Shown here in pieces: positions 4,186 through 24,682 of a DNA stretch of 64,000 nt. Numbering within the stretch: position 1 is the stretch's first letter; each line of letters starts with the position of its first letter. The notes under the pieces were generated by a model. It ran no database searches. It saw only the letters and a program-made list of their open reading frames with translations, and had not been told where the DNA came from. The translations under genes were made by a program, and so were the position numbers. Origin of the DNA: a virus; IMG/VR virus record IMGVR_UViG_3300035701_000001; one strand, 5' to 3'.

Positions 4186-5507
4186 TTCTCGCCCGTAGTT
4201 CCACTCTTCGTCCATCTTCCGAACAGGCCCGTGCCTTCGGTCGGGCGTGTGGAACGGCCAGGTGGGCGTGGAACTGGGGTCTCGCCAAGAAGCAGGAAGC
4301 GTGGAAGATCCGAAAAGCCGCCATCGAATCCGGAATCAAACCGTCTGACGCTCCGAAGGTGCCAACGGCCATTGACCTACATCGGGATCTGGTAAGATTC
4401 AAAAAGCTTCCCGTCGAGGAAGGTGGCGTCCCATGGATGTACGAAGTCTCGAAATGTGCTCCGCAAGAGGCTCTTAGAGACCTTGACGTAGCATTCGAGA
4501 ACTTCTTCAGACGGTTGAAGTGTGGAGAAACGCCAGGATACCCAAGATTCAAATCGCGTTTTCGTGATCCTGGACACTTTCGGCTTACGGGTGCTATCTC
4601 AGTCAAAAATGGACGGATTCGTCTCCCTCGGATCGGGGCTGTACGGTTCATGCCTGGAGATCGGAGCTACTTTTCTGACGGTGCCTTCGGTAGTGTCAGT
4701 ATCGTAGAAGACCATGGTCGCTGGTGTGTCTCCGTGAGGACGAACATTTTCGAGGCTCCTGTGGACAACACGCGGCCTACTGTTGGAATCGATGTGGGTG
4801 TTCGAGAACTCGCTCATCTCTCCGATGGAACCGTGATTCCGAATCCGCAGGCGCTGGACAGTGAGAACAGGCGACTCCGCAGGGCCAGGCTGACAATTGC
4901 CAGAAAGCAGCGTGCTGCTGATAAGCGATTTGGAAAGAGGAAGAAAGGAGAACGTCGTATCGAGTCAAAGCGACTGCAACGAGCCAGGAAAATCCATGCC
5001 CGTCTTGCTCGTCGTGTTACAGATCTCCGTGCGGATGCTCTTCACAAGTCAACGACATGGATTGCGAAGACGTACAGCACCGTCGTAGTCGAAGACCTTC
5101 ACGGGAAGAACATGACCCGTACCAGGAAAGGTAAAGGTCGAGCCTCGAAGGCCGGTCTGAATCGGTCGATTCTCGACAGCGGAATGCTACGTATTCGGCC
5201 TATTTTGGCTTACAAGATGCCGTTGTACGGTGGCTGGTTGGTTGCGGTTCCGGCAGCGGGGACGTCGCGTCGATGTTCTCGTTGTGGAGCGTACAACGAT
5301 CCAGGTTCCTCGAAAATTTACAAGTGCGAATCCTGCAAACTCGTCATTGATCGAGACGAGAATGCTTCGCTCAATATTCATGCCGCTGCGAGTTGCACAG
5401 TGGCCTCGACAGAAATGTCGGGATGTCGTGGAGCGGTTGTAAGACCCAAGGCGAAAGCCGGACGGCAGGCTGCTTTGATCCGACAGTTGGAGCCTGATCA
5501 TGTTTGA
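4182..5507 (+). CDS. tnpB: RNA-guided endonuclease TnpB, catalytically intact
   Basis: RuvC-I VGIDVG, RuvC-II VVVEDL, Zn finger CSRCG/CESC, RuvC-III DRDENAS; ATGA-coupled to tnpA. Confidence 0.95.
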   Translation: MILARSSTLRPSSEQARAFGRACGTARWAWNWGLAKKQEAWKIRKAAIESGIKPSDAPKVPTAIDLHRDLVRFKKLPVEEGGVPWMYEVSKCAPQEALRDLDVAFENFFRRLKCGETPGYPRFKSRFRDPGHFRLTGAISVKNGRIRLPRIGAVRFMPGDRSYFSDGAFGSVSIVEDHGRWCVSVRTNIFEAPVDNTRPTVGIDVGVRELAHLSDGTVIPNPQALDSENRRLRRARLTIARKQRAADKRFGKRKKGERRIESKRLQRARKIHARLARRVTDLRADALHKSTTWIAKTYSTVVVEDLHGKNMTRTRKGKGRASKAGLNRSILDSGMLRIRPILAYKMPLYGGWLVAVPAAGTSRRCSRCGAYNDPGSSKIYKCESCKLVIDRDENASLNIHAAASCTVASTEMSGCRGAVVRPKAKAGRQAALIRQLEPDHV

Positions 5508-8744: not shown

Positions 8745-8817
8745 CCCCGCGTAGCTCAGCGGTAGAGCAGCGGAATTTCAAGTCCAGCGGTCGCAGGTTC
8801 GAGCCCTGTCGCGGGGT
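8745..8817 (+). tRNA. atypical tRNA; bulged anticodon stem, loop can be read as TT-TCA-AG (UCA anticodon)
   Basis: Acceptor CCCCGCG/CGCGGGG, canonical D arm TAGCTCAGCGGTAGAGC and T arm GCAGG-TTCGAGC-CCTGT; anticodon arm longer than canonical. Confidence 0.65.
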
Positions 8818-8979
8818 CTTTCCCTTGACGAGCCCATGGAATGGTCCTACGCTATGCCTATGACGACCTGGATCTTCGAGTTCACGTGAATGCGGGGCAT
8901 CTCCTCGATGCCGTGACCCTCCCGAATGGGTTGGATGAATCGGTTTCTTCCTTCCAACCCTTTTTCGAGAGAGAGTCCC

Positions 8980-11968: not shown

Positions 11969-12630
11969 TGGAGATGGCGGGAGTCGACACATTGTTGTCG
12001 CCGTGGCTTTTTATCCTCGGCTTCTGCCCGTTTTCTTCCGGACAGGTCGGCGTACGTTTTCCCCCTCGGGTTTCCTCGGTCGGGGGCTGGAGACTCTTGG
12101 GGGGATTCTTGCTGGCATCTGTGCTCACCCCCTACGCTCTACGAGGACCTCGTGCTCGCGAAGCCCTCTCGGCGTTCCCATCTCAGGGTTCACCGATATT
12201 CCCCAGTTCTCTTCCCTGAATTACGCCAGGGAACGGGCCTTCTCTCGACCCGCGTCCAGAACCAATCGACCTCAACGTCTACGCGCGTAGCGGGTTTGGC
12301 ATTCGGTTCCCCTTGGAGTTCCCACGTCCATCGAAGTTCCTACACGGCTGATCTCCCCCGAAGGAGAGAGAATCCGGTCGTCGTCCCCCGGAAACCCCGC
12401 CATTCCATCTCAGACACGCCCAGCCAGGTGGTGATGGAAGGTGAGTCTCGGACCTTCCTGGCCGGACGGGAGCGTCCCTTTCGGGACTAGGCAGCCAGAC
12501 GGGCCGCCTCTCCGAAGTGCTTGCTGTTGTTGGCAATTACTTTTGGTTTGCCCAGTGCTTTACGAGGTTCTGGACGACCTCGGCGCGCGGTCTTGGCCTT
12601 CCTCGGCCCTGTCGAAACCGGTGCATCCCC
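11969..12630 (-). ncRNA. ssrA: tmRNA, split: exon 1 12630-12248, exon 2 11987-11969
   Basis: 5' GGGGATGCACCGGTTTCGAC; tag reading frame ANNSKHFGEAARLAA* (stop 12487); spliced 3' end GGACGCGGGT|TCGACTCCCGCCATCTCCA; acceptor GGGGATG/CATCTCC. Confidence 0.93.
11988..12247 (-). mobile_element. group I intron (260 nt) in tmRNA T-loop
   Basis: U before 5' splice site pairs with G of IGS GCCCGU (P1), terminal G, P3 CUGGGGA/UCUCCAG, P7 GCGUA/UACGC, P8, P9 hairpins. Confidence 0.85.
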
Positions 12631-12818: not shown

Positions 12819-13760
12819 ATGTTGGTCCCCCTGGCTCTCGCTGCGCTCGGCATGGCGGTCGCCTCTGCAGGAGAGGAGAGATCGCCTTCCGAACGAGTGC
12901 CATTTCCGGGGTTTGGACCGGAGGTACTTCTGCAGTTGATGCCGGGGTCCGCCTATTACGACATCGACAAGTGCTTCGGGCATCTGGATGGATGGTTCGT
13001 CCTGGCCTGGACGATTCCTACTTTGCTTTCGATGCGAAGTGCCGTGCGATCCCTGCTCAAGACCCCGCACATGGACATGGAGTGCCGGATCAGGTGTCCG
13101 GTTCCCATTGCCTGGTTTTTGCCGAAGGAGTCCCTGTCGGATCAGGCAAACAAGGTCCTGATGGAAATCCGGGGATATGACCTGGGCAGACACACCAAGG
13201 GTCATCCGGCTTACTTCAGGGATCGGGTTCTTCTTCTGAAGGAACTGGATGTCCTGCTCCGCCGGATCTTTGTCCCTTCGGAGCCAAACGAAGCCTTCGA
13301 GACTACATTTGGGATCGTTCAGACGGCGATAGGCCATACCCCTGTCCAAGTTCGGGAACTCGATGAGGTCAAGGAGGAGATCCGGGGGGCGTTGCTCAGT
13401 CGAGAAGAGTACGCCACTCGGATACTCAAGCCGTACTACGATTGGAGAACGCCGGACCCCAAAGAGCACAAGGAGATCCTTGTCGTCAAGTTGTGGGATT
13501 TCAAGCAGTCTTATATGAAAAAATTTCGGTATGGGGAACGCTGCGCGAATGTCAAGGTGCATTGGATCTATGAGGTAATCCAGGAACCCAAGGGGGATTT
13601 CTGGGCAGATGATTCCGTCGCCTCCTACGAGATCGACGACATGCTCGCAAGGCTCGGCTGGACTCCACCGCACCCGCGCAAGAAGAAGGACGGAGGAGAA
13701 GGAGAAGGAGGGGAAGAGGTTTCCGTAGACGATCTCATGAAATTGATTGGAAGTCATTGA
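12819..13760 (+). CDS. putative secreted hypothetical protein
   Basis: MLVPLALAALGMAVASA signal-like start, GAGGAG RBS; 313 aa. Confidence 0.75.
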   Translation: MLVPLALAALGMAVASAGEERSPSERVPFPGFGPEVLLQLMPGSAYYDIDKCFGHLDGWFVLAWTIPTLLSMRSAVRSLLKTPHMDMECRIRCPVPIAWFLPKESLSDQANKVLMEIRGYDLGRHTKGHPAYFRDRVLLLKELDVLLRRIFVPSEPNEAFETTFGIVQTAIGHTPVQVRELDEVKEEIRGALLSREEYATRILKPYYDWRTPDPKEHKEILVVKLWDFKQSYMKKFRYGERCANVKVHWIYEVIQEPKGDFWADDSVASYEIDDMLARLGWTPPHPRKKKDGGEGEGGEEVSVDDLMKLIGSH

Positions 13761-13795
13761 CAAAGCGTTGTTTTCGTTGATTCTTGTTTTTTTTG

Positions 13796-13824
13796 TTGCA
13801 CTTCTCGAAGCCCTTGGTTAGCCT
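13796..13824 (+). promoter_or_regulatory. promoter of tRNA block 1
   Basis: TTGCAC-N17-TAGCCT. Confidence 0.55.
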
Positions 13825-13830
13825 TTTTCC

Positions 13831-13923
13831 ATGACTCCCCGCAGTTCCATCACCTTCGCCACAAGCTTCCTGCTTCCGAGTTTGTCCTCGTGGCGGAAGT
13901 ACGTTCCGGAGGTGGGCCCGTAG
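13831..13923 (+). CDS. putative attenuator leader peptide 1 (MTPRSSITFATSFLLPSLSSWRKYVPEVGP)
   Basis: 30 codons between promoter and terminator; 3' end carries antiterminator arm. Confidence 0.55.
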   Translation: MTPRSSITFATSFLLPSLSSWRKYVPEVGP

Positions 13924-13950
13924 GGCTGGACTGCTTGTCTTCCCCCCCCT

Positions 13951-13995
13951 GAAGCCCCCTCCGGAACGAAAGCCCGGAGGGGGCTTCTGGTTTTT
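13951..13995 (+). terminator. attenuator/terminator hairpin upstream of tRNA block 1
   Basis: GAAGCCCCCTCCGG/CCGGAGGGGGCTTC 14-bp stem then TGGTTTTT. Confidence 0.75.
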
Positions 13996-14035: not shown

Positions 14036-14120
14036 GCGGATGTGGCGCAATCGGTAGATCGCGCGGGTCTCAAAAACCCGTGGGGGAAACCCCGTAGGAG
14101 TTCGAGTCTCCTCGTCCGCA
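14036..14120 (+). tRNA. trnL: tRNA-Leu(CAA)
   Basis: cloverleaf, CT-CAA-AA loop, long variable arm. Confidence 0.9.
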
Positions 14121-14124
14121 CTTT

Positions 14125-14202
14125 GGCTGGATAGCTGAGCGTGGGACAAGCGCCTGACTGAAGATCAGGAGTACGTCGGTTCAACTCCGACTCCAGCCAC
14201 CA
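14125..14202 (+). tRNA. trnF: tRNA-Phe(GAA)
   Basis: CCTGA-CTGAAGA-TCAGG; CCA encoded. Confidence 0.9.
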
Positions 14203-14203
14203 T

Positions 14204-14291
14204 GGGAGGAAGCCAGATGTTAAATAGCTGGGGCGGGCTGTAAACCCGTTGCCTTCGGGCTGGGAGCGTTCGAATCGCTCTTCTCCCACCA
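14204..14291 (+). tRNA. trnY: tRNA-Tyr(GTA)
   Basis: GCGGG-CTGTAAA-CCCGT; long variable arm; atypical D loop. Confidence 0.85.
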
Positions 14292-14300
14292 TTTTTCTGC

Positions 14301-14388
14301 GGAAGGTGAGGCCGGGCGTGGGCTGGTCGCTGGTTGGAAGCCAGATGGCATCTTCGGATGTGCGGTTCGATTCCGCCGCCTTCCGCCA
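14301..14388 (+). tRNA. trnS: tRNA-Ser(GGA)
   Basis: TT-GGA-AG loop, long variable arm, G73-CCA. Confidence 0.85.
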
Positions 14389-14395
14389 TTTTTTT

Positions 14396-14472
14396 GGGAT
14401 GTTAGCTCAGTAGAGTAGAGCCCCCGACTCTTAATCGGGCGGTCGTCGGTTCAAGCCCGACACATCCCACCA
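14396..14472 (+). tRNA. trnK: tRNA-Lys(CTT)
   Basis: CCCGA-CTCTTAA-TCGGG. Confidence 0.9.
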
Positions 14473-14478
14473 CTTTTT

Positions 14479-14561
14479 GCTCGGATGGTGGAACGCTAGA
14501 CACGCGGCGCTTAGAACGCCGTGGCCGAAAGGCTGTGCGGGTTGAATTCCCGCTCCGAGTA
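14479..14561 (+). tRNA. trnL: tRNA-Leu(TAG), C19:G56 variant
   Basis: CT-TAG-AA loop; D loop GC, T loop TTGAATT. Confidence 0.85.
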
Positions 14562-14568
14562 CTCTTTT

Positions 14569-14656
14569 GGGGGCGTGGTGGAATTTTGGTAGACACCATA
14601 GGCCGAGGACCTATGGGGGCGTAAGCCCCGTGCCGATTCGACTTCGGCCGTCCCCA
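14569..14656 (+). tRNA. trnL: tRNA-Leu(GAG)
   Basis: CATAGG-CCGAGGA-CCTATG. Confidence 0.85.
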
Positions 14657-14663
14657 CTCATTT

Positions 14664-14751
14664 GCACGCGTGATGGAAACCAGGAAGACATCCGAGGCTC
14701 AGAACCTCGGGAGACGAAAGTCTCGTGCCGGTTCGATCCCGGCCGCGTGCA
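14664..14751 (+). tRNA. trnL: tRNA-Leu(CAG)
   Basis: CCGAGG-CTCAGAA-CCTCGG. Confidence 0.9.
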
Positions 14752-14761
14752 CTCGTTTGTT

Positions 14762-14835
14762 AGGCACCGTGCGCTGGGACACACCCAGGATTCCAAATCC
14801 AGGGGGGCCCGGATCATCACCGGGGGTGCCTGCCA
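14762..14835 (+). tRNA. trnW: tRNA-Trp(CCA), atypical T loop
   Basis: AGGCACC/GGTGCCT-G-CCA; TT-CCA-AA loop; T loop ATCATCA. Confidence 0.7.
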
Positions 14836-14844
14836 TTTTTCCAA

Positions 14845-14928
14845 GGGATGAGGTCGGGTTCCTGTTTGGAACCTGCTAGAACAACGGAGGCGGGTGGTCG
14901 AATAGACCTGGGAATCCGACCTCATTCC
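14845..14928 (+). ncRNA. unidentified structured RNA in tRNA array
   Basis: 18-bp terminal stem GGGATGAGGTCGGGTTCC/GGAATCCGACCTCATTCC enclosing small hairpins. Confidence 0.45.
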
Positions 14929-14937
14929 TCTTCTTTT

Positions 14938-15018
14938 GCCCAGATGGCGAAAAGGCAGACGTAGAGGTCCTAAAAACCTTGTCCTTCGGGAGTGCGGGTT
15001 CGACTCCCGCTCTGGGCA
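14938..15018 (+). tRNA. trnL: tRNA-Leu(TAA)
   Basis: GAGGT-CCTAAAA-ACCTT. Confidence 0.85.
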
Positions 15019-15100
15019 CTTTTCGGAGTTCTCGGATAATACCTGTCGGACGGCCTGAAAAACCGATCGATGCCCGTGGGGGCGGGGACTCCGTTTCTTG

Positions 15101-15188
15101 GGAGGCGTGACCGAGTGCTCGATGGCACCAGTCTTGAAAACTGGAGGTTCGCAAGGACCCGTGGGTTGGAATCCCACCGCCTCCTCCA
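15101..15188 (+). tRNA. trnS: tRNA-Ser(TGA), C19:G56 variant
   Basis: CCAGT-CTTGAAA-ACTGG; D loop GAGTGCTCGA, T loop TTGGAAT. Confidence 0.85.
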
Positions 15189-15194
15189 TCTTGT

Positions 15195-15282
15195 GGAAAC
15201 GTGACCGAGAGGCCGATGGTCCCCGCCTGCTAAGCGGGGTGTGTTAACCCACACGCGGGTTCGAATCCCGCCGTTTCCGCCA
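15195..15282 (+). tRNA. trnS: tRNA-Ser(GCT)
   Basis: CCCGC-CTGCTAA-GCGGG. Confidence 0.9.
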
Positions 15283-15287
15283 TCTTT

Positions 15288-15375
15288 GGAGCAGTGGCCA
15301 AGAGCCTCATGGCCCCCGTCTCGAAAGCGGGTGGTGCGAAAGCACACGCGGGTTGAAATCCCGCCTGCTCCGCCA
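15288..15375 (+). tRNA. trnS: tRNA-Ser(CGA), C19:G56 variant
   Basis: CT-CGA-AA loop; D loop GAGCCTCA, T loop TTGAAAT. Confidence 0.85.
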
Positions 15376-15468: not shown

Positions 15469-16326
15469 ATGGAGGATTTCACGGAATTGGTCGCAGAGAA
15501 AAAATCAGAGAGCCCTGGACAGAAGCTCATCACAGCAGGACGCCATTCCTGGGAAGAGATCGGGAAAGTCTGGGAAGTGATGGAGGAGGAGAATCAGGAG
15601 GCTGCTGTTCGGGAACTTCTTGGTCTCCTCAAGACGACAGAGGATCACGGGGTTCGTGACATCGCTGCGATGTTTTTCGGTGATTTGAAGGAACAGGATG
15701 CCGCTGTTATCCTGGCTGGACTTCTCACGGACCCTCGGACAAAGAACCATCGGGGTCGTCTCGTTGCTGCATTGGGAGACCTCGACTACCAGGAGTTCCT
15801 TCCTGTGATCGAGGGACTTGCGTCTCCGGATGAGAGTTTTGAGGTTCGGAGCATCGTCCAGTACCTGCTCCATCTTCCTTTGGTAAGCCCTCCAGTACAG
15901 GTCGAGGAAGTGGTGATGGCCCATGACCCTTTGAACGCGACCGAGGCCATCGCAATGGCCGTCCTGGCATTCCTTCCGAAGGCGGACGATGCCAGGTTGC
16001 GGGATACCATGGAGAGACATTTCTTCGAGCCCGCGCCGCGCAAGGTGATCGCCCGCCTGAACCCCCCAGAGGAACTACGGGAGGCCCTTGACCTCTGCGC
16101 AGAACTGGATGACGTGTGGGACCTCGGTACCGACGTGCAAAGGCAGAGTATTGAGGATATCCGCCGACTTCTTGTGGGCCTTATCGGGAAAGGCCCCTGC
16201 CACGAGATCACCCTTGACGATTGCGCGGTGTTCATCGAGGTCATCCGTCGCGAAGAAGAACACCATCCTCTCCCTGCCGAGGTCCAAGAACCGTTGCGGC
16301 GACGACTTGTCGGGGAGCCACGATGA
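15469..16326 (+). CDS. HEAT/PBS-lyase-repeat-like protein, possibly two domains
   Basis: VRDIAAMFFGDLKEQDAAVILAGLL, RGRLVAALGDL helical repeats; internal RBS+ATG near 15916. Confidence 0.65.
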   Translation: MEDFTELVAEKKSESPGQKLITAGRHSWEEIGKVWEVMEEENQEAAVRELLGLLKTTEDHGVRDIAAMFFGDLKEQDAAVILAGLLTDPRTKNHRGRLVAALGDLDYQEFLPVIEGLASPDESFEVRSIVQYLLHLPLVSPPVQVEEVVMAHDPLNATEAIAMAVLAFLPKADDARLRDTMERHFFEPAPRKVIARLNPPEELREALDLCAELDDVWDLGTDVQRQSIEDIRRLLVGLIGKGPCHEITLDDCAVFIEVIRREEEHHPLPAEVQEPLRRRLVGEPR

Positions 16327-16337: not shown

Positions 16338-16385
16338 CGGGTGGTGCGAAAGCACACGCAGGTCGAAATCCTGCCTGCTCCGCCA
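16338..16385 (+). repeat. direct repeat of tRNA-Ser(CGA) 3' half (att-like)
   Basis: 48 bp, 3 mismatches vs 15328-15375. Confidence 0.85.
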
Positions 16386-16400
16386 GATTCTAATTTTTTC

Positions 16401-16429
16401 TTGACGACCACCTTTGAACCAGGTACATC
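16401..16429 (+). promoter_or_regulatory. promoter of tRNA block 2
   Basis: TTGACG-N17-TACATC. Confidence 0.5.
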
Positions 16430-16457
16430 ATCCTTGTCTTACAGGAGTTCGTCTACC

Positions 16458-16583
16458 GTGTCTCCATTTGCCAAAACAAACGCCCAAACCGCAGCCATTC
16501 GGCCCGAAAGGTCCGGGTGCGTCGGTATGGTGCGCGAGCAGGCGAATCACCCGACGGTGAACCGGGGGCGCGGCATGCGGTAG
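16458..16583 (+). CDS. putative attenuator leader peptide 2 (MSPFAKTNAQTAAIRPERSGCVGMVREQANHPTVNRGRGMR)
   Basis: AGGAG RBS, GTG start, 41 codons, antiterminator arm at 3' end. Confidence 0.6.
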   Translation: MSPFAKTNAQTAAIRPERSGCVGMVREQANHPTVNRGRGMR

Positions 16584-16604
16584 ACGATTTTCACCTACCC
16601 GACC

Positions 16605-16650
16605 GAGGCCCCCGGCAGAGCAATCTTCCGGGGGCTTCGTCGTTTTCTGT
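16605..16650 (+). terminator. attenuator/terminator hairpin upstream of tRNA block 2
   Basis: GAGGCCCCCGG/CCGGGGGCTTC stem then T-rich tract. Confidence 0.7.
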
Positions 16651-16677
16651 TCTTTGATTTTTTGAACTTTTTGCTCC

Positions 16678-16753
16678 GGGGATGAAGCTGAATTGGAACA
16701 GCCCCGCGCTACGGACGCGGAGAATGCCCGTTCGATCCGGGTCATCCCCGCCA
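16678..16753 (+). tRNA. trnR: tRNA-Arg(ACG)
   Basis: CCGCG-CTACGGA-CGCGG. Confidence 0.9.
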
Positions 16754-16797
16754 TTTCGAAGCTCTTTTCCATCCTGAATACGAATGGTCTTGTACAC

Positions 16798-16886
16798 GAT
16801 GTTCCTGACCGGAGAGGGTCGAGTCCATCGGCGGACGCAGGGAAACCGTGCACGTCGGTGGGTGCTCCCCTCTTCGGCAGGACATC
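16798..16886 (+). ncRNA. unidentified rod-like RNA in tRNA array
   Basis: GATGTTCCTG..GGAGAGGG / CCCCTCTTC..CAGGACATC stem, inner stem capped by GAAA. Confidence 0.4.
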
Positions 16887-16891
16887 CCTTG

Positions 16892-16965
16892 GTTCCCGTA
16901 GCGCAGATGCACAGCGCGCCGCGCTCCGGACGCGGAGGTCACCGGTTGGAATCCGGTCGGGAACG
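16892..16965 (+). tRNA. trnR: tRNA-Arg(CCG), C19:G56 variant
   Basis: CCGCG-CTCCGGA-CGCGG; D loop AGATGCACA, T loop TTGGAAT. Confidence 0.85.
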
Positions 16966-16973
16966 CCTTCTAT

Positions 16974-17050
16974 GGTAAGCGAAGTTCTATTGGTTGAACG
17001 CCGGGTTGTGGCCTCGGAGGGTGCGGGTTCGATCCCCGTCGCTTACCCCA
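16974..17050 (+). tRNA. trnH: tRNA-His(GTG)
   Basis: G-1 and C73; TT-GTG-GC loop. Confidence 0.9.
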
Positions 17051-17158
17051 GTTCGGCAATGCGGACACGGTGTAAGCAGCCCCCGCGTTGCCGGGCTGTC
17101 CCAGCGGGACGTTTTTGAGGTCCTGTGAGTGCAGTCGCTTGCGACTGCCGGGACAGCC
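17051..17158 (+). ncRNA. unidentified structured RNA in tRNA array
   Basis: 14-bp hairpin 17051-17096 plus three-way junction GGCTGTCCC/GGGACAGCC. Confidence 0.4.
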
Positions 17159-17166
17159 TGGTTTTC

Positions 17167-17243
17167 GGGGTGGTAGTTGAGTCGGTCACAACACCGGCCT
17201 GTCACGTCGGAGTTCGCGGGTTCGAGCCCCGTCCATCCCGCCA
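17167..17243 (+). tRNA. trnD: tRNA-Asp(GTC)
   Basis: CCGGC-CTGTCAC-GTCGG. Confidence 0.9.
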
Positions 17244-17292
17244 TTTTGGAGGTCCACATGACCCGATTGAAACGTCGGTCGATCTACCCCGT

Positions 17293-17365
17293 GGGGCGGT
17301 AGGTCAACTGGCAGACAAACGGCCTTTTAAGCCGATAGTTCCGGGTTCGAGTCCCGGTCGCCCCA
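17293..17365 (+). tRNA. trnK: tRNA-Lys(TTT)
   Basis: CT-TTT-AA loop. Confidence 0.9.
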
Positions 17366-17373
17366 CTCCCTTT

Positions 17374-17450
17374 CCGAGCGTAGCGCAGCCTGGTAGCGCA
17401 CAAGCCTTGGGCGCTTGTGGTCAGAGGTTCAAATCCTCTCGCTCGGACCA
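17374..17450 (+). tRNA. trnP: tRNA-Pro(TGG)
   Basis: CAAGC-CTTGGGC-GCTTG. Confidence 0.9.
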
Positions 17451-17457
17451 TTTCTTT

Positions 17458-17571
17458 TCCGCCTCGCAGCGGAACCTGCCGTCGGGGGCGGGACCGGGTT
17501 TCCACGGGACAGCAACCTGTGAAACGCGGATAGGGAAACCCCGGTACACTCCTTTCCGATGGGCGAGGGAA
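17458..17571 (+). ncRNA. unidentified rod-like RNA in tRNA array
   Basis: Nested stems CCTCGC/GCGAGG, CCGTCGG/CCGATGG, ACCGGGTTTCC/GGAAACCCCGGT, CACGGG/CCTGTG. Confidence 0.4.
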
Positions 17572-17586
17572 GGAGCCCGATTCTTC

Positions 17587-17659
17587 GTTCCCATCGTCTA
17601 GTGGTCCAGGATGGCGGACTCTCGATCCGTCGACACCGGTTCGAATCCGGTTGGGAATG
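17587..17659 (+). tRNA. trnE: tRNA-Glu(CTC)
   Basis: GCGGA-CTCTCGA-TCCGT. Confidence 0.9.
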
Positions 17660-17670
17660 CCTTTTCAGAT

Positions 17671-17687
17671 GGACACACGATGTGTCC
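17671..17687. promoter_or_regulatory. operator copy
   Basis: GGACACA-CGA-TGTGTCC palindrome. Confidence 0.6.
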
Positions 17688-17748
17688 AATGGTACGTCTT
17701 CTCCGAGGTCAATCCATGAACTCCAGGTCTCGTTCAAAGCAGGAAGCG

Positions 17749-18207
17749 ATGGACAACCGATACCCTCTCTGGGTCGACTCCAGTGAACGGTTCAACCTGC
17801 GGGAGGTCGCCCCCAACCTTTACGTGGGCTCCCAGTGGTCGTTGGAGTGCAGGGATTGGCGGGCGGTCGTGGATCTCACGGGAAGCAGCCGCAGCGATCC
17901 CACTGCATATGGACGTTGCGACCGGCTCCTGCGCTGGACCCTGCATGACGGGGATCCCTTCCCGGAGGGATCCCTCACGGCCATCGAGGGATTCTGCCGG
18001 GACCGGAGTGGTCCGATCCTTCTGCACTGCGCGGCGGGTCTCTCCCGGTCCGCCTCCGCTGCCTACGGAATCCTGAGGACCCACCACCGGCTGCCTCCGA
18101 GGGAAGCCCTCCGCAGGATTCGGGTCCTGCCTCAGTTTCCCGTGAAGGAGACCTTGCTTTCTGTGGAACAGTGGGTCCGTCGCTGGAAATATCGGAATTC
18201 CAGGTAG
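17749..18207 (+). CDS. dual-specificity/tyrosine phosphatase family protein
   Basis: HCAAGLSRSA (CX5R) P-loop; LYVGS and DGDP motifs. Confidence 0.85.
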   Translation: MDNRYPLWVDSSERFNLREVAPNLYVGSQWSLECRDWRAVVDLTGSSRSDPTAYGRCDRLLRWTLHDGDPFPEGSLTAIEGFCRDRSGPILLHCAAGLSRSASAAYGILRTHHRLPPREALRRIRVLPQFPVKETLLSVEQWVRRWKYRNSR

Positions 18208-18279
18208 AGTGGAGACGGGAGATGGTCCTGTGACGTTCTTCCCTTCTGCGGATAGAAGAGAAGAAAGAGAAGATATTCC

Positions 18280-18768
18280 ATGCATTCCCTGGTCTGGCTC
18301 GGTGCACTCGTTCTCGGTGGCTCGGCTCTGGCCTCGCGCGAGTCGAAGCCATCGGGTCCTGAGCAAGATCCCCGTTTTCAGCCGGTGGGTCCAGGGAGAG
18401 ATCCCGAGACATTCGGGGGGCAGGAAGAAGCGGTCCGTCTGGCGGATGCACTCGTAGCCCTCTGTGATTACGCCGAGGAAAACTGGGAGGAACTCGGGAT
18501 TCACAGAGTCCGGGTTCCTGAGGACCAGGGGGGTACCCTGGAAGGGATCCTCATTGAGCACTCCGTGCATGGAGCCGAATTCGTGATCCTCTCCCAGGCA
18601 CTCGAACTGGCAGAGCAGTACGAGGTCCGAGCCGTCCACGTCCTCTCGGACAAGGGGATCTTCATCGGATTCACTCCGCTGTTCTCCACGTCGTTCGAGC
18701 CCATCGACCCCGCATTCGTTAACCAGGGATTGCTGTGGAGGTCATACGGCAATCCCCTGTGGAAATGA
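18280..18768 (+). CDS. membrane-anchored hypothetical protein (WLGA family 1)
   Basis: MHSLVWLGALVLGGSALAS N-terminus. Confidence 0.75.
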   Translation: MHSLVWLGALVLGGSALASRESKPSGPEQDPRFQPVGPGRDPETFGGQEEAVRLADALVALCDYAEENWEELGIHRVRVPEDQGGTLEGILIEHSVHGAEFVILSQALELAEQYEVRAVHVLSDKGIFIGFTPLFSTSFEPIDPAFVNQGLLWRSYGNPLWK

Positions 18769-18814
18769 CGGGGTAGGGATTTATGGATAGGAAAGGGGAA
18801 AGAGAGGACATTCC

Positions 18815-19513
18815 ATGGCACACAAGACCGACTTCACTCCCCTGTACTGGCTTGGCGCGGCGTTGGTCGGCGCGTGGGCATTGTCTTCTGGAGGTTCGAA
18901 GGAAGAAAGGAGACTGGAAGGTCACCGGGGAAGGGCACAGGAACCCTACAGGACTGAAGAGCCACCACGGGAACCCGTCTCGCAGATGCAGACGAGAATC
19001 CCCGGAGGATCGGAAAGGGTCGAATCCGAGGTCCAGAGGAGAAAACCTGTCTCTTCCACAATGGGTCCCCAGAGAGCCAGTGTGGAAGAACAGGCCAGAC
19101 AAGCGGCAAAGGAAATGATCCCTGCCCAGGGGGAGGTCCAGTCTGTGGATCCGGGGGATGAGACGACTCTGATCTACCGGTATCCATCGGAGGATTGGCT
19201 CGGGACGCCCACAAAGACCCCCTGGGGGATTGCACGGTCTGCCCAGATGTTTGGAATCACAGGGTACATCTTCCCCGATGCGGCGGGTCGATACCCGATG
19301 TACGCCGCACAGGTCGAAGAAGGGATTTTCTATCCCTACTACTTGGTCTCCAAAGGAAAAGTGATTCCTGCGAAGTCCACCTTTGAGATCCTGTCCCTCG
19401 ATCCCTCCAAGGCCGAAGGCAAGGTCTACCTTTTCTCTCCGGACAATCCGAAGGACGTTCCCGGAAGAAAAGCTGTTCTGCAGGGAGGTCGGGTGAAAAT
19501 GGAGCAGGAGTGA
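18815..19513 (+). CDS. membrane-anchored hypothetical protein (WLGA family 2)
   Basis: LYWLGAALVGAWALSS; TPWGIA, FPDAAGRYP. Confidence 0.75.
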   Translation: MAHKTDFTPLYWLGAALVGAWALSSGGSKEERRLEGHRGRAQEPYRTEEPPREPVSQMQTRIPGGSERVESEVQRRKPVSSTMGPQRASVEEQARQAAKEMIPAQGEVQSVDPGDETTLIYRYPSEDWLGTPTKTPWGIARSAQMFGITGYIFPDAAGRYPMYAAQVEEGIFYPYYLVSKGKVIPAKSTFEILSLDPSKAEGKVYLFSPDNPKDVPGRKAVLQGGRVKMEQE

Positions 19514-19576
19514 GCTTGTTCCAGGAATGACATTGGGATGTGCTGCGGATAAGAAGGGGAAAAGAGAGGTCGTGTC

Positions 19577-20671
19577 ATGAATTCCCTGTACTGGCTCGGC
19601 GCGGCATTGCTCGGGGGTTGGCTGGCCTCGGGCTACGGAGAGAAGACGGAGGCGACTCCCTCTCGTCCGGCTCCGATCCCTCCCCGTCGGAATGGGACCG
19701 GACATGGGGATCAAGGTCAGGAGAGATACCCCGAGGAACCGGTCCAGGAACGCGAAGGGGCCGAATCAGGTCTTTTCGAGCAGGAAGAGCAGTTCGGACG
19801 CAAAAAGCCACAGCCATCGAAACACGAAGTTCGTACCGGGACTCCTCCTGCCAAGCCCAAGAAGAAGCCCGCTGCCATTGCCCAGAGCGATGCACTCGGA
19901 CTTGACCTCAACCCCATCTCCCGCCTGGCAACTTTCTCGAATTGTGAGGCCGAGAAGGTGGCAGCGCAGGAAGCCATCCGTCCTTTCTCGGAGCCGGTCC
20001 CGAAGACGCCCAGGACATCCCTGGTTGCTCCCCCTCCTCCGCCCCTCGACTTCGACGAAGAACTGGATCTCCTCGAAGAGGGAATCGAGTCCGAATTCTT
20101 CGAGGGTGTTCCGGAAGGAAAAGGACCCGTTTCTGCCAAGGCAAAGAAGTCAGCCCGGATCGAAACCCAGAACCGGGCAGTCCAGCGTGGGAAAGAAAAC
20201 GTCATCTCGGAGTTTTCCCTCGAAGGATCCTCAGAAGGCCCCGAGGAAGACGAAGAGGAAGACTGGCTCGACTGGGCCGAGGCCGAGTTTTCAGAAGAGG
20301 CGATGACCCAGTGGCAGGAATTCGGCCGCAAGCCCAAGGGATCTATGGCGGGACCCGGCAGCGAGTTCGAGGATCTGGAGTCTGCCGACCCCTACGCGAA
20401 CCTCGGCAACATCTACAGCACACCTGCAGGACCCGTACGGCATCGTCAGATCGACACGCCGGACGGCCCCCGCAACCTCTACACGTTCCCCGATGCTCAG
20501 GGCCAGTACCCGACCGTCTTCGATACACCGGACGGTCCCCGCTACGTCTATCCGGGGACTCTGCCGGGACAGACCGTCGAGGCTGTGACGGAACGGCGGG
20601 GGGATTCGTACTTCCACATGTCTCCGCAGCGGCTTGTCGATCTGGATTCACTTGGGCTTTCGGTCGAATGA
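19577..20671 (+). CDS. membrane-anchored acidic hypothetical protein (WLGA family 3)
   Basis: MNSLYWLGAALLGGWLAS; FPDAQGQYP. Confidence 0.75.
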   Translation: MNSLYWLGAALLGGWLASGYGEKTEATPSRPAPIPPRRNGTGHGDQGQERYPEEPVQEREGAESGLFEQEEQFGRKKPQPSKHEVRTGTPPAKPKKKPAAIAQSDALGLDLNPISRLATFSNCEAEKVAAQEAIRPFSEPVPKTPRTSLVAPPPPPLDFDEELDLLEEGIESEFFEGVPEGKGPVSAKAKKSARIETQNRAVQRGKENVISEFSLEGSSEGPEEDEEEDWLDWAEAEFSEEAMTQWQEFGRKPKGSMAGPGSEFEDLESADPYANLGNIYSTPAGPVRHRQIDTPDGPRNLYTFPDAQGQYPTVFDTPDGPRYVYPGTLPGQTVEAVTERRGDSYFHMSPQRLVDLDSLGLSVE

Positions 20672-20746
20672 CCCCCTTGTTTTTTGCCACTTCTTCCTTC
20701 AACTCATCTTGTTCTTCGGGATATAGAAGAGCAGGAGGATGTCTTC

Positions 20747-21721
20747 ATGCACCCTGTGATCTGGATCGGCAGCCTCGTCCTCGGGGCCTGGGCTCTCTCG
20801 GGAACCTCGAAGAGAAAGGAACCTCCTGTCGCAGGTTCTCCCGAACCTTCTCGCTCCGTAGGGTTCCTGGGTCGTCCTCGCTATGGAGCTACGGAAATCC
20901 GGCAGGTTTCCCCAGATGAACTTGGGCTTCTTGTTGAAGTACCCTGGGGAATAGTAGCGAAAGCACGGCAACAAACGCTGAAAGATGGCTGGACTCACAC
21001 GTTTTTTCCTGACGCACGTGGAAAATTTCCCATCTGGGCAATCGGCCAGCACTACTACTACTTGCCTCCAGGCGACCCGTGGACAGATCAGTGGGCAATG
21101 TCCTCGACGTACGCCGATCCGTTCGATCCTCCGACAAGGAAGAGGATTTTCACCGTTCCTTCCAAAGATCCTCAGTACTTCGACCTGGTCGATAGAATGA
21201 CTGAAATCAATCTGGACGAAGCCTATGCAGGGCGGAAGTCACGTTCGGACCGTTTCGGGGCAGTGACGGAGGAGGACCGCCTGGCTGTAGCCATCCGGGA
21301 ATTCAGGCGCGCAGCCGAGGAGTTCAAACCGCACTATGACAGGGGGGACTCCGTCCTGAATGCGAAGACCTCGGACAGCAAGGGTAGGCCCCTTGTTGGC
21401 GTTCTCACCCCTGTGGGGGACTGGGAATACGGGAAACCCATCAACTACGGCGTGGACTATCTCCATGGAGAGGCCTGTCGCATCGCGGAGAAGTACCGGG
21501 TGAGGGCAGCGATGTCTCCGGTGGTGTCCGTTGGGGAGAACCAAGGGGTCGTCATCGGACTCACGTCGGCTTGGAACCCAGCATTCCAGACTCTCTTCCG
21601 TGGACAGAATCCAGAGCTTCAATGGGGGAGAGCCAGTCTGAAGGGACTCCAGTACCAGACAGGCATCTTGCCACGTCCTGGTTCGGGGGACTCGTACGGG
21701 AAGAAGGCCTCCGAGATCTAA
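20747..21721 (+). CDS. membrane-anchored hypothetical protein (WLGA family 4)
   Basis: MHPVIWIGSLVLGAWALSG; VPWGIV, FPDARGKFP; GGAGG RBS. Confidence 0.75.
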   Translation: MHPVIWIGSLVLGAWALSGTSKRKEPPVAGSPEPSRSVGFLGRPRYGATEIRQVSPDELGLLVEVPWGIVAKARQQTLKDGWTHTFFPDARGKFPIWAIGQHYYYLPPGDPWTDQWAMSSTYADPFDPPTRKRIFTVPSKDPQYFDLVDRMTEINLDEAYAGRKSRSDRFGAVTEEDRLAVAIREFRRAAEEFKPHYDRGDSVLNAKTSDSKGRPLVGVLTPVGDWEYGKPINYGVDYLHGEACRIAEKYRVRAAMSPVVSVGENQGVVIGLTSAWNPAFQTLFRGQNPELQWGRASLKGLQYQTGILPRPGSGDSYGKKASEI

Positions 21722-21794
21722 CGCAATCGAATAGCGCACCAGATTGGGGATCTGGTGAGTGATCGTTCCAATCAGGTGGTCCCGACTTGTTCAT

Positions 21795-21871
21795 GGGGTT
21801 GTAGCTCAGTTCGGGAGAGCGCGGCGTCCGCAACGCCGAGGCCGGGGGTTCGACTCCCCTCGACTCCACCA
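21795..21871 (+). tRNA. trnA: tRNA-Ala(CGC)
   Basis: CGGCG-TCCGCAA-CGCCG; G3:U70. Confidence 0.9.
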
Positions 21872-21876
21872 TTCAT

Positions 21877-21949
21877 GGGCCTGTAGTTCATCTGGGAGAA
21901 CACCTCGGTGGCATCGAGGAGGCAGTCGGTTCGAGTCCGATCAGGTCCA
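21877..21949 (+). tRNA. trnA: tRNA-Ala(GGC)
   Basis: CCTCG-GTGGCAT-CGAGG. Confidence 0.85.
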
Positions 21950-21958
21950 CTATTTCAC

Positions 21959-22035
21959 GGGGTTGTAGCTCAATGGTTTAGAGCAATCGGCCGTTAACCG
22001 ATAGGCTGTCCGTTCGAGTCGGACCTTCCCCGCCA
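21959..22035 (+). tRNA. trnN: tRNA-Asn(GTT), two U-U mismatches in acceptor
   Basis: ATCGG-CCGTTAA-CCGAT. Confidence 0.8.
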
Positions 22036-22040
22036 TCTTT

Positions 22041-22128
22041 GGGACGGTAGCTCAGTTGGGTAGAGCGCGGTTCTGATAAGACCGAGGCCGAGAGGATTTC
22101 GTGGGTTCGAGCCCCGCCCGTCCCACCA
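22041..22128 (+). tRNA. trnI: tRNA-Ile(GAT), enlarged variable region
   Basis: CGGTT-CTGATAA-GACCG. Confidence 0.85.
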
Positions 22129-22129
22129 T

Positions 22130-22206
22130 TGTCCCCTAGTTCAATTGGCAGAACGCTCGGCTCTGGACCGAGAGGTTTCAAGGTTCGAACCCTTGGGGGA
22201 CAACCA
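22130..22206 (+). tRNA. trnQ: tRNA-Gln(CTG)
   Basis: CTCGG-CTCTGGA-CCGAG. Confidence 0.9.
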
Positions 22207-22212
22207 TCTCGT

Positions 22213-22285
22213 GTCGGTGTAGCCCAAAGGCTGGGCACGACGCTGCAAACGTCGAAGAATGCCGGTTCGAATCCGGCCGCCGACT
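22213..22285 (+). tRNA. trnC: tRNA-Cys(GCA)
   Basis: CGACG-CTGCAAA-CGTCG; U73. Confidence 0.85.
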
Positions 22286-22292
22286 CCCTCTT

Positions 22293-22368
22293 CGGGGTGT
22301 AGCTCAGTTGGAGGAGCGCCTGGTTCGGGACCAGGAGGTTTTCGCCGGTTCGAGCCCGGCCACCCCGA
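22293..22368 (+). tRNA. trnP: tRNA-Pro(CGG)
   Basis: CCTGG-TTCGGGA-CCAGG. Confidence 0.9.
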
Positions 22369-22454
22369 CTCCTTCGTGTTACAACAAGGATACCGGCAGG
22401 CCGTGAGCCGGGACAACCGCACGGTACCTTCACCTCGATGTCAGGGAGAACGAC

Positions 22455-22883
22455 ATGAGACAGGTGCGTGCGAAGTTCCGGTGCATGGAGATCAGCCGTT
22501 TCTGGAACGGGGGGTGTACGCTCGTACGTTTTTTGCCTGTCATGGCAAAGAATGGATGCCGTGCGGACGAAGAGACCGCCAGCGAGGAGAACGCAGCCTT
22601 CTGGCAGGCAACCCCTTCCGGAGAAGCCAAGCTCCAGTTCCCCACGCTCGACCCCGTGTCCTACGAGATCGGGCACTGCTACTACCTCGACATGCGTCCA
22701 GACGAACAGGGGAGTTGGAAGCTCACCGAGCGCAAGCACAGTGAAGGCCAACTCGGGGTTGTCCTGTCCTGCTCCTGGCGGGACTCGGTCAGCATGAACA
22801 TCTGCAACGAGTCAGCCTGGGATGCCTTCGACGGTCCCATCGGGGGACCCTGGTCTGTCGAGTTCACGCACGCGGGGCCGTAG
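22455..22883 (+). CDS. hypothetical protein inside tRNA array
   Basis: 142 aa, GGAGA RBS, VRAKFRC and ENAAFWQATPSG motifs. Confidence 0.75.
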   Translation: MRQVRAKFRCMEISRFWNGGCTLVRFLPVMAKNGCRADEETASEENAAFWQATPSGEAKLQFPTLDPVSYEIGHCYYLDMRPDEQGSWKLTERKHSEGQLGVVLSCSWRDSVSMNICNESAWDAFDGPIGGPWSVEFTHAGP

Positions 22884-22898
22884 CGCTCCTTCTTTTGC

Positions 22899-22969
22899 CG
22901 GGGCGTTGGCAAGCGGCAAGCCACCAGGCTTTGGTCCTGGCATCGCAGGTTCGAATCCTGTCGCCCCCA
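22899..22969 (+). tRNA. trnQ: tRNA-Gln(TTG)
   Basis: CCAGG-CTTTGGT-CCTGG. Confidence 0.85.
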
Positions 22970-22977
22970 CCTTCGAA

Positions 22978-23054
22978 GGCAGCGTACCTCAGTTGGCCAG
23001 AGGAGGGCGCTCATATCGCCACGGTCGCCGGTTCGAGTCCGGCCGCTGCCACCA
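22978..23054 (+). tRNA. tRNA-Met/Ile2(CAT)
   Basis: CT-CAT-AT loop; identity Met vs Ile2 not resolved. Confidence 0.8.
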
Positions 23055-23063
23055 TCCTTTCAT

Positions 23064-23141
23064 CCGGCTGTAGCTCAGCCTGCTCAGAGCGCGTGGTCGG
23101 GGACCACGAGGTCGCCCGTTGAAGTCGGGCCAGCCGGACCA
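23064..23141 (+). tRNA. trnP: tRNA-Pro(GGG), C19:G56 variant
   Basis: CGTGG-TCGGGGA-CCACG; D loop AGCCTGCTCA, T loop TTGAAGT. Confidence 0.85.
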
Positions 23142-23145
23142 TTTT

Positions 23146-23220
23146 GCGGGTATGGCGCAATGGTAGCGCATCGGGTTGCCAATCCGAAGGTTGCCGGTTC
23201 GACTCCGGTTGCCCGCTCCA
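23146..23220 (+). tRNA. trnG: tRNA-Gly(GCC)
   Basis: TCGGG-TTGCCAA-TCCGA. Confidence 0.9.
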
Positions 23221-23339
23221 CTTTGAAATAATCTACAAAAAACGAAAGAAACGAAAATAATGACACAGAACTTGTATAGTCCGAGGCTTGGACTATACAG
23301 TTCCTGTGCAATTTCAAGAAAGATGCAGGTTCCTTCGTT

Positions 23340-23412
23340 GCTGACATAGCTCAGCCGGTAGAGCAGTGGTTTTGTAAACCTCAGGTCGTCGGTTCGAACC
23401 CGACTGTCAGCT
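23340..23412 (+). tRNA. trnT: tRNA-Thr(TGT)
   Basis: TT-TGT-AA loop. Confidence 0.9.
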
Positions 23413-23422
23413 TTCCTTCCTC

Positions 23423-23500
23423 GCCCCAGTAGCTCAGGTGGATCAGAGCGCGTCCTTGGTAAGGACGAGGTCATCGGTTCAAGTCCGATTTGGGGCTCCA
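23423..23500 (+). tRNA. trnT: tRNA-Thr(GGT)
   Basis: CGTCC-TTGGTAA-GGACG. Confidence 0.9.
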
Positions 23501-23506
23501 TTTTGT

Positions 23507-23584
23507 GCCTCAGTAGCTCAGATTGCTTGGAGCGCCTGCTTCGTACGCAGGAGGTCGTCGGTTGGAATCCGACCTGAGGCTCCA
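23507..23584 (+). tRNA. trnT: tRNA-Thr(CGT), C19:G56 variant
   Basis: CCTGC-TTCGTAC-GCAGG; D loop AGATTGCTTG, T loop TTGGAAT. Confidence 0.85.
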
Positions 23585-23587
23585 TTT

Positions 23588-23719
23588 CTCAGGACGCATC
23601 GAACGAGGCTAGGGCCCGTGTCTCCCTTCGGAATCGGTGGGAGGAGCTTCGGCTTCGTTTGCACCACCCCAACGCGGTGGATAATCGGGGTGGGAAGCGT
23701 GCGGATGACCTGTCCTGGG
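23588..23719 (+). ncRNA. unidentified multibranch RNA in tRNA array
   Basis: Terminal TCAGGAC/GTCCTGG stem enclosing CTCCC/GGGAG, GAGC-TTCG-GCTT and CCACCCC/GGGGTGG hairpins. Confidence 0.35.
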
Positions 23720-23727
23720 ATCTATTT

Positions 23728-23799
23728 GCGGGAGTAGCTCAATGGTAGAGCGCCAGCCTTCCAAGCTGGCCGTTGCGGGTTCGAGTCCCGTTTCCCGCT
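23728..23799 (+). tRNA. trnG: tRNA-Gly(TCC)
   Basis: CCAGC-CTTCCAA-GCTGG. Confidence 0.9.
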
Positions 23800-23807
23800 C
23801 TTTTTCC

Positions 23808-23882
23808 GGGTGTGTAGCTCAATGGTGGAGCACCGTTTCGACATGGCGGAGGCCGTTGGTTCGAGTCCAATCACACCCACCA
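23808..23882 (+). tRNA. trnV: tRNA-Val(GAC)
   Basis: CCGTT-TCGACAT-GGCGG. Confidence 0.85.
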
Positions 23883-23888
23883 TTTCTT

Positions 23889-23926
23889 GGGGACGTAGCT
23901 CAGTTGGGAGAGCGGCGTTGCACGCG
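23889..23926 (+). pseudogene. truncated 5' half of tRNA-Ala(TGC)
   Basis: GGGGACGTAGCTCAGTTGGGAGAGCGGCGTTGCACGCG with no T arm or 3' acceptor. Confidence 0.7.
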
Positions 23927-23952
23927 TAGTCCAGGTATGGTAGCACTAGGCT

Positions 23953-24510: not shown

Positions 24511-24516
24511 TTTCTG

Positions 24517-24590: not shown

Positions 24591-24599
24591 CCCTTGTTC

Positions 24600-24672: not shown

Positions 24673-24682
24673 CTTCTCCCAT

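Follow-up and report, generated by a model that had tools for sequence, protein, structure and literature searches.

What determines when a phage expresses the tRNA genes that it carries? To our knowledge, the regulation of phage tRNA arrays is largely unknown. Recent work ties these arrays to the loss of host tRNAs and to anti-phage tRNA nucleases. The question is raised by a stretch of 64,000 nucleotides of viral DNA (hereafter, the window), in which a block of tRNA genes lies behind a short open reading frame (ORF) and a terminator hairpin. A previous sequence-only reading had proposed that this ORF reports on the tRNAs behind a switchable terminator. Here, we ask whether the ORF, the terminator and the tRNA genes fit together in this way.

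The tRNA arrays of an uncultured phage

The window belongs to an uncultured, phage-like replicon (a giant phage). A near-identical protein is encoded on a contig of 204.5 kb. The window has a G+C content of about 57%, and most of its proteins have no family match. Between 13 and 26 kb, there are 43 tRNA genes. ARAGORN called 40 of these at its standard threshold; Ser(GGA) and Trp(CCA) were called only at a lowered threshold, and we assigned Tyr(GTA) by reading the anticodon loop by hand. (ARAGORN miscalls this gene.) All three of these less certain calls are in the first block of 13 tRNAs. With that qualification, the make-up that the sequence-only reading had given for this block (five tRNAs for Leu, four for Ser, and one each for Phe, Tyr, Trp and Lys(CTT)) was confirmed. 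The other 30 tRNA genes lie further downstream, behind a second leader. The features of both leaders are listed in Table 1.

Table 1. Positions of the leader elements and tRNA blocks. Numbering is that of the window, except for the last row. Promoter-like sites, pairings and alternative hairpins are predictions.
Feature	Positions	Strand	Description
Promoter-like site P1	13779-13824	+	GATTCT, T-run, TTGCAC (13796-13801), 17-nt spacer, TAGCCT (13819-13824)
Leader ORF 1 (ORF1)	13831-13923	+	ATG to TAG, 30 codons; no Shine-Dalgarno sequence; U-rich stretch just upstream
Hairpin 1:2 (anti-antiterminator or pause hairpin)	13850-13915	+	Outer helix 13851-13858 / 13907-13914; -30.4 kcal/mol, z = -3.6
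Roster core, codons 12-24 of ORF1	13864-13902	+	S F L L P S L S S W R K Y; 11/13 codons read by block-1 tRNAs via 10 different anticodons
Segment 2 of leader 1 (antiterminator 5' strand)	13902-13917	+	Near-copy of the T1 3' arm; overlaps the last codons of ORF1
Hairpin 2:3 (antiterminator)	13902-13968	+	-40 kcal/mol, z = -4.9
Intrinsic terminator T1 (hairpin 3:4)	13948-13995	+	14 G+C-rich pairs (13951-13964 / 13974-13987) plus 2 extra pairs, 9-nt loop, U5 at 13991-13995
tRNA block 1	14036-15375	+	Leu(CAA), Phe, Tyr, Ser(GGA), Lys(CTT), Leu(TAG, GAG, CAG), Trp, Leu(TAA), Ser(TGA, GCT, CGA); n = 13
Promoter-like site P2	16386-16429	+	GATTCT, T-run, TTGACG, 17-nt spacer, TACATC
Leader ORF 2 (ORF2)	16458-16583	+	GTG start, 41 codons; AGGAG at 16444-16448, 10 nt before the GTG
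Segment 2 of leader 2	16562-16569	+	CCGGGGGC, identical to the core of the T2 3' arm; near the end of ORF2
Intrinsic terminator T2	16600-16665	+	Hairpin 16600-16642, long T-rich tail; -32.2 kcal/mol, z = -5.5
tRNA blocks 2 and later	16678-24917	+	30 tRNA genes, 28 different anticodons; protein genes interspersed
phiCbK leader cassettes	2141-2370 and 3942-4103 of the examined locus (JX100813)		Small ORF, annotated terminator, tRNA block

Another tRNA, with the anticodon UCA, lies apart from the arrays at 8745-8818 (+ strand), within a long open frame on the minus strand. ARAGORN reports it as a tRNA for selenocysteine (SeC), and it also matches the Rfam tRNA model. It could be a UGA-reading tRNA. 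There is also a full-length match to tmRNA (74.6 bits) at 12250-12622 on the minus strand, which is opposite to the strand of the tRNA arrays. Within block 1, a gap of about 90 nt between tRNA-Trp and tRNA-Leu(TAA), at 14846-14937, is unannotated and gave neither a tRNA call nor an Rfam match; it has a long-range stem (GATGAGGTCGG ... CCGACCTCATTC). Towards the end of the arrays, in the stretch 23887-24444, a tRNA-like 5' half (GGGGACGTAGCTCAGTTGGGAGAGCG) is followed by an ORF for an HNH endonuclease (23953-24444; PHROG HNH families, E = 3e-9), and the end of this ORF (24444) is the start of tRNA-Ala(TGC).

Elsewhere in the window, back-to-back ORFs of about 155-215 residues run from 38669 to 58326 (+ strand). 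Many of these start with ATGATCCTC, ATGATTCTC or ATGGTAGGC, which suggests a tandemly amplified gene family. At 4182-5507 (+ strand), there is a protein of the TnpB / IS605 OrfB type, with HTH, OrfB_IS605 and Cas12f1-like TNB domains.

The elements of the first leader

The 30-codon ORF that had been described upstream of block 1 is present, with the composition that had been given for it: 6 Ser, 3 Leu, 2 Phe, 1 Trp, 1 Tyr and 1 Lys (AAG). In most of the genes in the window that we checked, GGAG or a motif like it lies about 9-12 nt 5' of the start codon; ORF1 has no such motif. Because it has no Shine-Dalgarno sequence, ORF1 would need either leaderless initiation or U-rich, S1-type initiation.

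The promoter-like site P1 is a weak match to a sigma-70 promoter. Its -10 hexamer (TAGCCT) agrees with the consensus at only 3 of 6 positions, and the site is absent from the list that a consensus scan produced. Sites of this build (GATTCT, a T-run, TTGnnn, 17 nt, and TAnnnY) are found just twice in the 64-kb window, at P1 and at P2. That P1 is a promoter and that ORF1 has a leaderless start are inferred; the position of the transcription start is a guess, and P1 is the weakest element of leader 1.

A 17-nt inverted repeat (82% complementary) has one arm at the end of the upstream gene (13749-13765) and the other around the leader's ATG (13823-13839). This repeat could mask the start codon of leader 1 in transcripts that read through from the upstream gene. 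Transcripts that started at P1 would be without the repeat's 5' arm.

The 14-bp terminator is there as well, with its U5 tail. Its energy is -34.5 kcal/mol (z = -5.9). In a 50-nt scan of both strands, T1 is the strongest combination of a hairpin and a T-tract in the 64 kb (-33.8 kcal/mol). T2 is second at -32.2 kcal/mol, and the next-best terminator-like structure reaches -27.6. Between T1 and the first tRNA of block 1, we saw only a weak candidate for a promoter.

ORF1 contains codons for most of the tRNAs behind T1

How well does ORF1 match the tRNAs behind T1? Plain amino-acid composition gave only modest support for a match, and in its place we adopted a test of anticodon coverage. Coverage is the number of different anticodons in a block that have a cognate codon in the ORF behind which the block sits.

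Of the 13 block-1 anticodons, 10 have a cognate codon among the 29 codons that follow the ATG of ORF1. Segments of the same length from the phage's own genes cover 5.7 +/- 1.5 (P = 0.003 for ORF1), and the other frames cover 3-7. Compared with dinucleotide shuffles, the coverage of ORF1 has P = 0.006. In the composition test, the codons that are read by block-1 tRNAs make up 14/29 in ORF1 (shuffle P = 0.012) and 3/40 in ORF2 (P = 0.048). A caveat is that the other 15 of the 29 codons in ORF1 have no reader in block 1, so if ORF1 is a sensor, it is not an exclusive one.

Among 100,182 open windows of 13 codons (both strands), the core of the roster, at codons 12-24, has the highest coverage and shares it with no other window; outside ORF1, the coverage reaches 8 at most. 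More generally, ORF1 holds the maximum of the 64 kb for window sizes from 8 to 20 codons, and holds it alone at sizes of 12-15. With wobble reading, 12 codons in ORF1 are readable by all 13 block-1 tRNAs, as is the case in no other of 102,053 windows.

A second leader lists codons for the remaining tRNAs

A companion to this leader, with a similar layout, lies between block 1 and the later tRNAs. All of these later tRNAs together have 28 different anticodons, and the companion's ORF (ORF2) covers 26 of them. Gene segments cover 16.8 +/- 1.9 of these 28 anticodons, and none of 20,000 segments reached 26 (P < 5e-5). The other frames cover 16-20, and the maximum for dinucleotide shuffles was 25. 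Among 63,034 open windows of 40 codons, the coverage in ORF2 is the maximum, and it is reached in ORF2's frame only.

The two ORFs divide the tRNAs between them. ORF2 covers just 2 of the 13 block-1 anticodons (P ~ 0.001), which indicates avoidance; ORF1 covers the anticodons of block 2 at the expected rate. Isoacceptors are split as well: ORF1 has the Lys codon AAG, with tRNA-Lys(CTT) behind it, and ORF2 has the Lys codon AAA, with tRNA-Lys(TTT) behind it. For each of Thr, Ala and Pro, ORF2 contains three different codons, matching three isoacceptors. Together, the two rosters cover 36 of 41 anticodons, or 40 of 41 with wobble reading. (The UCA tRNA described above is absent from both rosters.)

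From the end of T2 to the first tRNA behind it (at 16678) is only about 12 nt, too short a distance to hold a promoter of its own for block 2. Block 2 would therefore be reachable only by read-through of T2.

ORF2 has also been called as a gene of 41 residues, with an identical sequence, on an independent ENA contig, where a neighbouring protein is 96% identical. This recurrence is the only comparative evidence from relatives, and it is weak.

Just before P2, at 16340-16386, there is a duplicate of the 3' half of tRNA-Ser(CGA) (15328-15375), the last tRNA of block 1. Because of this copy, an ORF with HEAT repeats (15469-16326) is flanked by two tRNA 3' ends. If that ORF is an insertion, then leader 2 may once have lain directly after block 1.

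Alternative hairpins in the leaders

The sequence-only reading had also claimed that the 3' end of ORF1 is complementary to the 5' arm of the terminator. We found this complementarity: TTCCGGAGG-T-GGGC (13904-13917) can pair with GCCCCCTCCGGAA (13954-13966), which is in the 5' arm of T1. In full, the predicted duplex has 15 pairs and a single bulged U (13902-13917 / 13954-13968). It is rarer than expected by chance, as judged from dinucleotide shuffles of the 110 nt upstream (P = 0.003 with the 14-nt arm, and 0 of 2000 shuffles with a wider arm). In leader 2, the complementarity is modest (P ~ 0.03-0.04 from shuffles).

In each leader, segment 2 copies the 3' arm of its own terminator (CCGGAGG(T)GGGC in leader 1 and CCGGGGGC in leader 2). 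Because of this, the two leaders differ from each other on all three of the interacting strands.

In leader 1, segment 2 could also pair upstream, and three hairpins can be drawn: 1:2, 2:3 (the antiterminator) and 3:4 (T1). They are mutually exclusive, and each is significant individually (z = -3.6, -4.9 and -5.9, respectively).

Which of these hairpins is predicted to form? In the classical model, the position of the stalled ribosome would set the equilibrium fold of the full-length leader. This failed for most codons: at most stall positions, equilibrium folding of the full-length leader prefers the terminator. Because of this preference, an attenuation model for these leaders has to depend on kinetics. 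Before the 3' arm of T1 is made, the minimum-energy fold of the nascent RNA is predicted to be the antiterminator, unless the ribosome's A site is at or beyond 13894-13903. The same prediction holds for the nascent RNA of leader 2, with the exception applying from an A-site position of 16554 onwards. In these folding calculations, a kinetic race on the nascent RNA fits.

Two complications emerge from the modelling. The nascent RNA is predicted to prefer the antiterminator even if it is free of ribosomes, so the default state without translation is uncertain. Also, the Lys and Tyr codons of ORF1 adjoin segment 2, and a ribosome that stalled there would itself mask segment 2. Overall, the predicted energies are compatible with a choice that is set by the ribosome; that transcription actually terminates is inferred.

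A proposed mechanism

We propose that the locus works as follows. Transcripts would start at or just before 13831 and carry ORF1, which is a roster of the tRNAs that are encoded behind T1. The lead ribosome would read this roster while RNA polymerase heads for T1. With fast decoding of every codon, the ribosome would have arrived in the last 7-9 codons and would cover segment 2, leaving the 5' arm of T1 free; T1 would then fold, and transcription would stop at the U5 tract. If any tRNA on the roster is scarce, the ribosome would lag behind, and segment 2 would pair with the 5' arm of T1. Once this antiterminator has formed, T1 could not fold, and the tRNA genes would be transcribed. A delay at any of the first ~20 codons of leader 1 (or ~32 codons of leader 2) should leave segment 2 free. 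The net effect would be negative feedback on decoding capacity, with leader 2 (16386-16665) acting likewise for all of the other tRNAs.

Given the codon match, the same pattern at leader 2, the significant hairpins and the geometry of the switch, the idea of a leader ORF that reports on the tRNAs behind a switchable terminator is supported. We think that the region from P1 to T1 is probably a ribosome-mediated (leader-peptide) transcription attenuator that gates block 1. This rests on sequence statistics and RNA folding. We have no RNA data, and the translation of ORF1, termination at T1, and the dependence of read-through on charged tRNA are all inferred. The trigger, which might be the loss of host tRNAs during infection or their cleavage by host defence nucleases, is inferred as well.

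The presence of about one codon per tRNA suggests that the leaders sense the cumulative transit time of the ribosome. By a narrow balance of the evidence, we favor the broader proposal that the two roster peptides act as transit-time sensors of decoding capacity: the arrays would be turned on when host tRNAs are lost (due to host shut-off or anticodon nucleases) and turned off once the phage's tRNAs have restored decoding.

Similar cassettes in phiCbK and the search for relatives

We found a similar arrangement in phiCbK (JX100813), a cultured phage of Caulobacter. There, an annotated 45-residue protein, gp083, and an annotated rho-independent terminator precede nine tRNAs. The gene for gp083 covers all 9 anticodons of the block that follows (background mean 4.2, P = 2.8e-4). 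A 31-codon ORF that precedes the following annotated terminator covers 7/7 anticodons (P = 1.7e-3). The gene for gp083 also has 8 Thr codons and 8 Ala codons, and phiCbK has no tRNA for these. The paper that describes the phiCbK genome does not mention a match between the codons of these ORFs and the tRNAs.

The phiCbK cassettes resemble the leaders in the window in their order (a small ORF, a terminator and a tRNA block) and in that the ORF covers the anticodons of the block. But phiCbK is unrelated to the window's phage and has no sequence similarity to it, and the likeness rests on layout and codon coverage, not on antiterminator pairing.

Closer relatives were hard to find. Among phages in GenBank, only generic pieces of tRNAs matched the window. 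Searches of IMG/VR with two flanking proteins, a 24-mer from a tRNA, or the motif that is common to both leaders found no relatives, nor did searches of JGI metagenome contigs by protein alignment or with the both-leader motif. Large protein collections, searched with three neighbouring proteins, gave only near-identical copies, apart from a fragment at 54% and a homologue at 74%, each on a short contig (of 2.1 kb, in ERZ27248148, for the homologue). In the one locus that we examined, there was no tRNA. The phage's lineage is isolated, and the codon roster and the pairing are without an evolutionary test in diverged relatives.

Other explanations

Could the switch be real but be set by something other than a ribosome? 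An RNA-binding protein of the phage or the host, a small molecule, direct binding of tRNA, or the speed of the polymerase might choose between the hairpins, and the ORF would be incidental. The pairing and folding support an RNA switch by themselves, without reference to translation; ORF1 has no Shine-Dalgarno sequence; and shuffled sequences yield a similarly placed ORF in 13-24% of cases for leader 1 and in 9-12% for leader 2. But this would leave it unexplained why each ORF, and only in its own frame, is at the extreme of the window in matching the anticodons of the tRNAs that follow its own terminator. Furthermore, no riboswitch, T-box or other Rfam family matched, even at E <= 10 (for a match to part of one leader model, see below). 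We consider a switch without the ribosome to be unlikely, but not so unlikely that it can be set aside. We have still more doubt that P1 and T1 delimit a small gene that is complete in itself. The product of such a gene, either a peptide of 30 residues or a small RNA (about 165 nt) with its own terminator, would act in trans, and expression of the tRNAs would depend on leakage or on another source. In favor of this, the promoter-like site, the short transcript and the very strong T1 would together make up a full unit, and attenuator RNAs and leader peptides that act in trans are reported from Sinorhizobium (PMC6614838, PMC7298713). Yet a small gene of this kind needs no segment that is complementary to the 5' arm of its terminator, a trans-acting peptide has no obvious use for a codon roster, and block 2 has no room for a promoter of its own after T2. 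A role in trans alongside attenuation could still exist.

The simplest account is that T1 is a plain terminator for the upstream gene, whose stop codon is at 13760, and that chance alone produced the ORF, its complementarity to T1 and its codon match. T1 does lie downstream of a gene on the + strand, and at 57% G+C, open frames of 30 codons are common (we estimate that, in about one case in three, a given frame remains open for 30 codons). However, coincidence would have to account jointly for the pairing and the codon statistics, which recur at leader 2 and (in the case of codon coverage) in phiCbK. Also, 190 nt separate the stop codon from T1, and a promoter-like site lies within this distance. 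We view this account as very improbable, and we continue to interpret the locus as a leader-peptide attenuator.

Comparison with known regulatory leaders

In the amino-acid operons of enterobacteria, leader-peptide attenuators are known from trpL, hisL, leuL and pheL, and some leaders respond to several amino acids: the ilvGMEDA leader senses Leu, Val and Ile, and the thr leader senses Thr and Ile. The phage leaders resemble the ilv/thr type in having a promoter (or in the phage, a promoter-like site), a short ORF with regulatory codons, hairpins 1:2, 2:3 and 3:4, and a terminator before the genes. They are also alike in that the position of the ribosome picks the hairpin (as we propose for the phage) and in that one leader serves several amino acids. 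There are three differences. First, ilv/thr-type leaders regulate biosynthetic enzymes, while the phage leaders precede tRNAs. Second, ilv/thr-type leaders have runs of one codon, while the phage leaders have about one codon per isoacceptor (10-13 of 13 for leader 1 and 26 of 28 for leader 2). Third, unlike in ilv/thr-type leaders, the ORF of phage leader 1 runs through segment 2. Neither leader matched the Rfam leader families for Trp, His, Leu or Thr at the gathering score. The only Rfam leader match, at 21.6 bits (the gathering score is 49), was to the His leader model, whose terminator part matched the T2 hairpin.

T-boxes contain no ORF; they recognize uncharged tRNA by direct binding, through their specifier loop and T-box sequence. 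They resemble the proposed switch in that the status of tRNA is sensed and decides between a terminator and an antiterminator, but they differ in binding the tRNA directly and in lacking an ORF. The T-box was absent from the Rfam matches for both leaders, up to E = 10.

In E. coli, expression of phenylalanyl-tRNA synthetase (pheST) is controlled by how quickly the cognate codons in the pheM leader are read. As proposed for the phage, a component of the translation machinery is under the control of the decoding of its own codons. pheST differs in that a single amino acid is involved, in that the regulated gene encodes a synthetase and is not a tRNA gene, and in being a cellular gene.

As for the leaderless start that we infer for ORF1, leaderless short ORFs encoding polycysteine are reported to be Cys-responsive attenuators in mycobacteria (bioRxiv 10.1101/834739). 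These ORFs are a precedent for a leaderless attenuator ORF at the 5' end of a transcript, but they respond to one amino acid, and the operons that they control encode proteins.

In full-text searches of the literature, we did not find any description of the attenuation of tRNA genes. This agrees with the sequence-only reading, which knew of no described example for tRNA arrays. The attenuator is likely real, and it departs from known leader-peptide attenuators in that tRNAs are the regulated genes and the leader holds a nearly complete list of isoacceptor codons.

Implications for phage tRNA arrays

A sensor of decoding speed that works codon by codon would account for both the timing of array expression and the reason for it. 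With such a sensor, the reach of leader-peptide attenuation would grow from the supply of amino acids to the supply of tRNAs. The sensor would also provide a compact and testable genetic part, in which read-through of a terminator reports on the availability of chosen tRNAs. The codon-roster statistic is simple enough for a survey of all phages, and it picks out the small ORFs before the tRNA blocks of phiCbK. If the proposal is true, then this phage maintains homeostatic feedback on its tRNA supply by means of classical attenuation.
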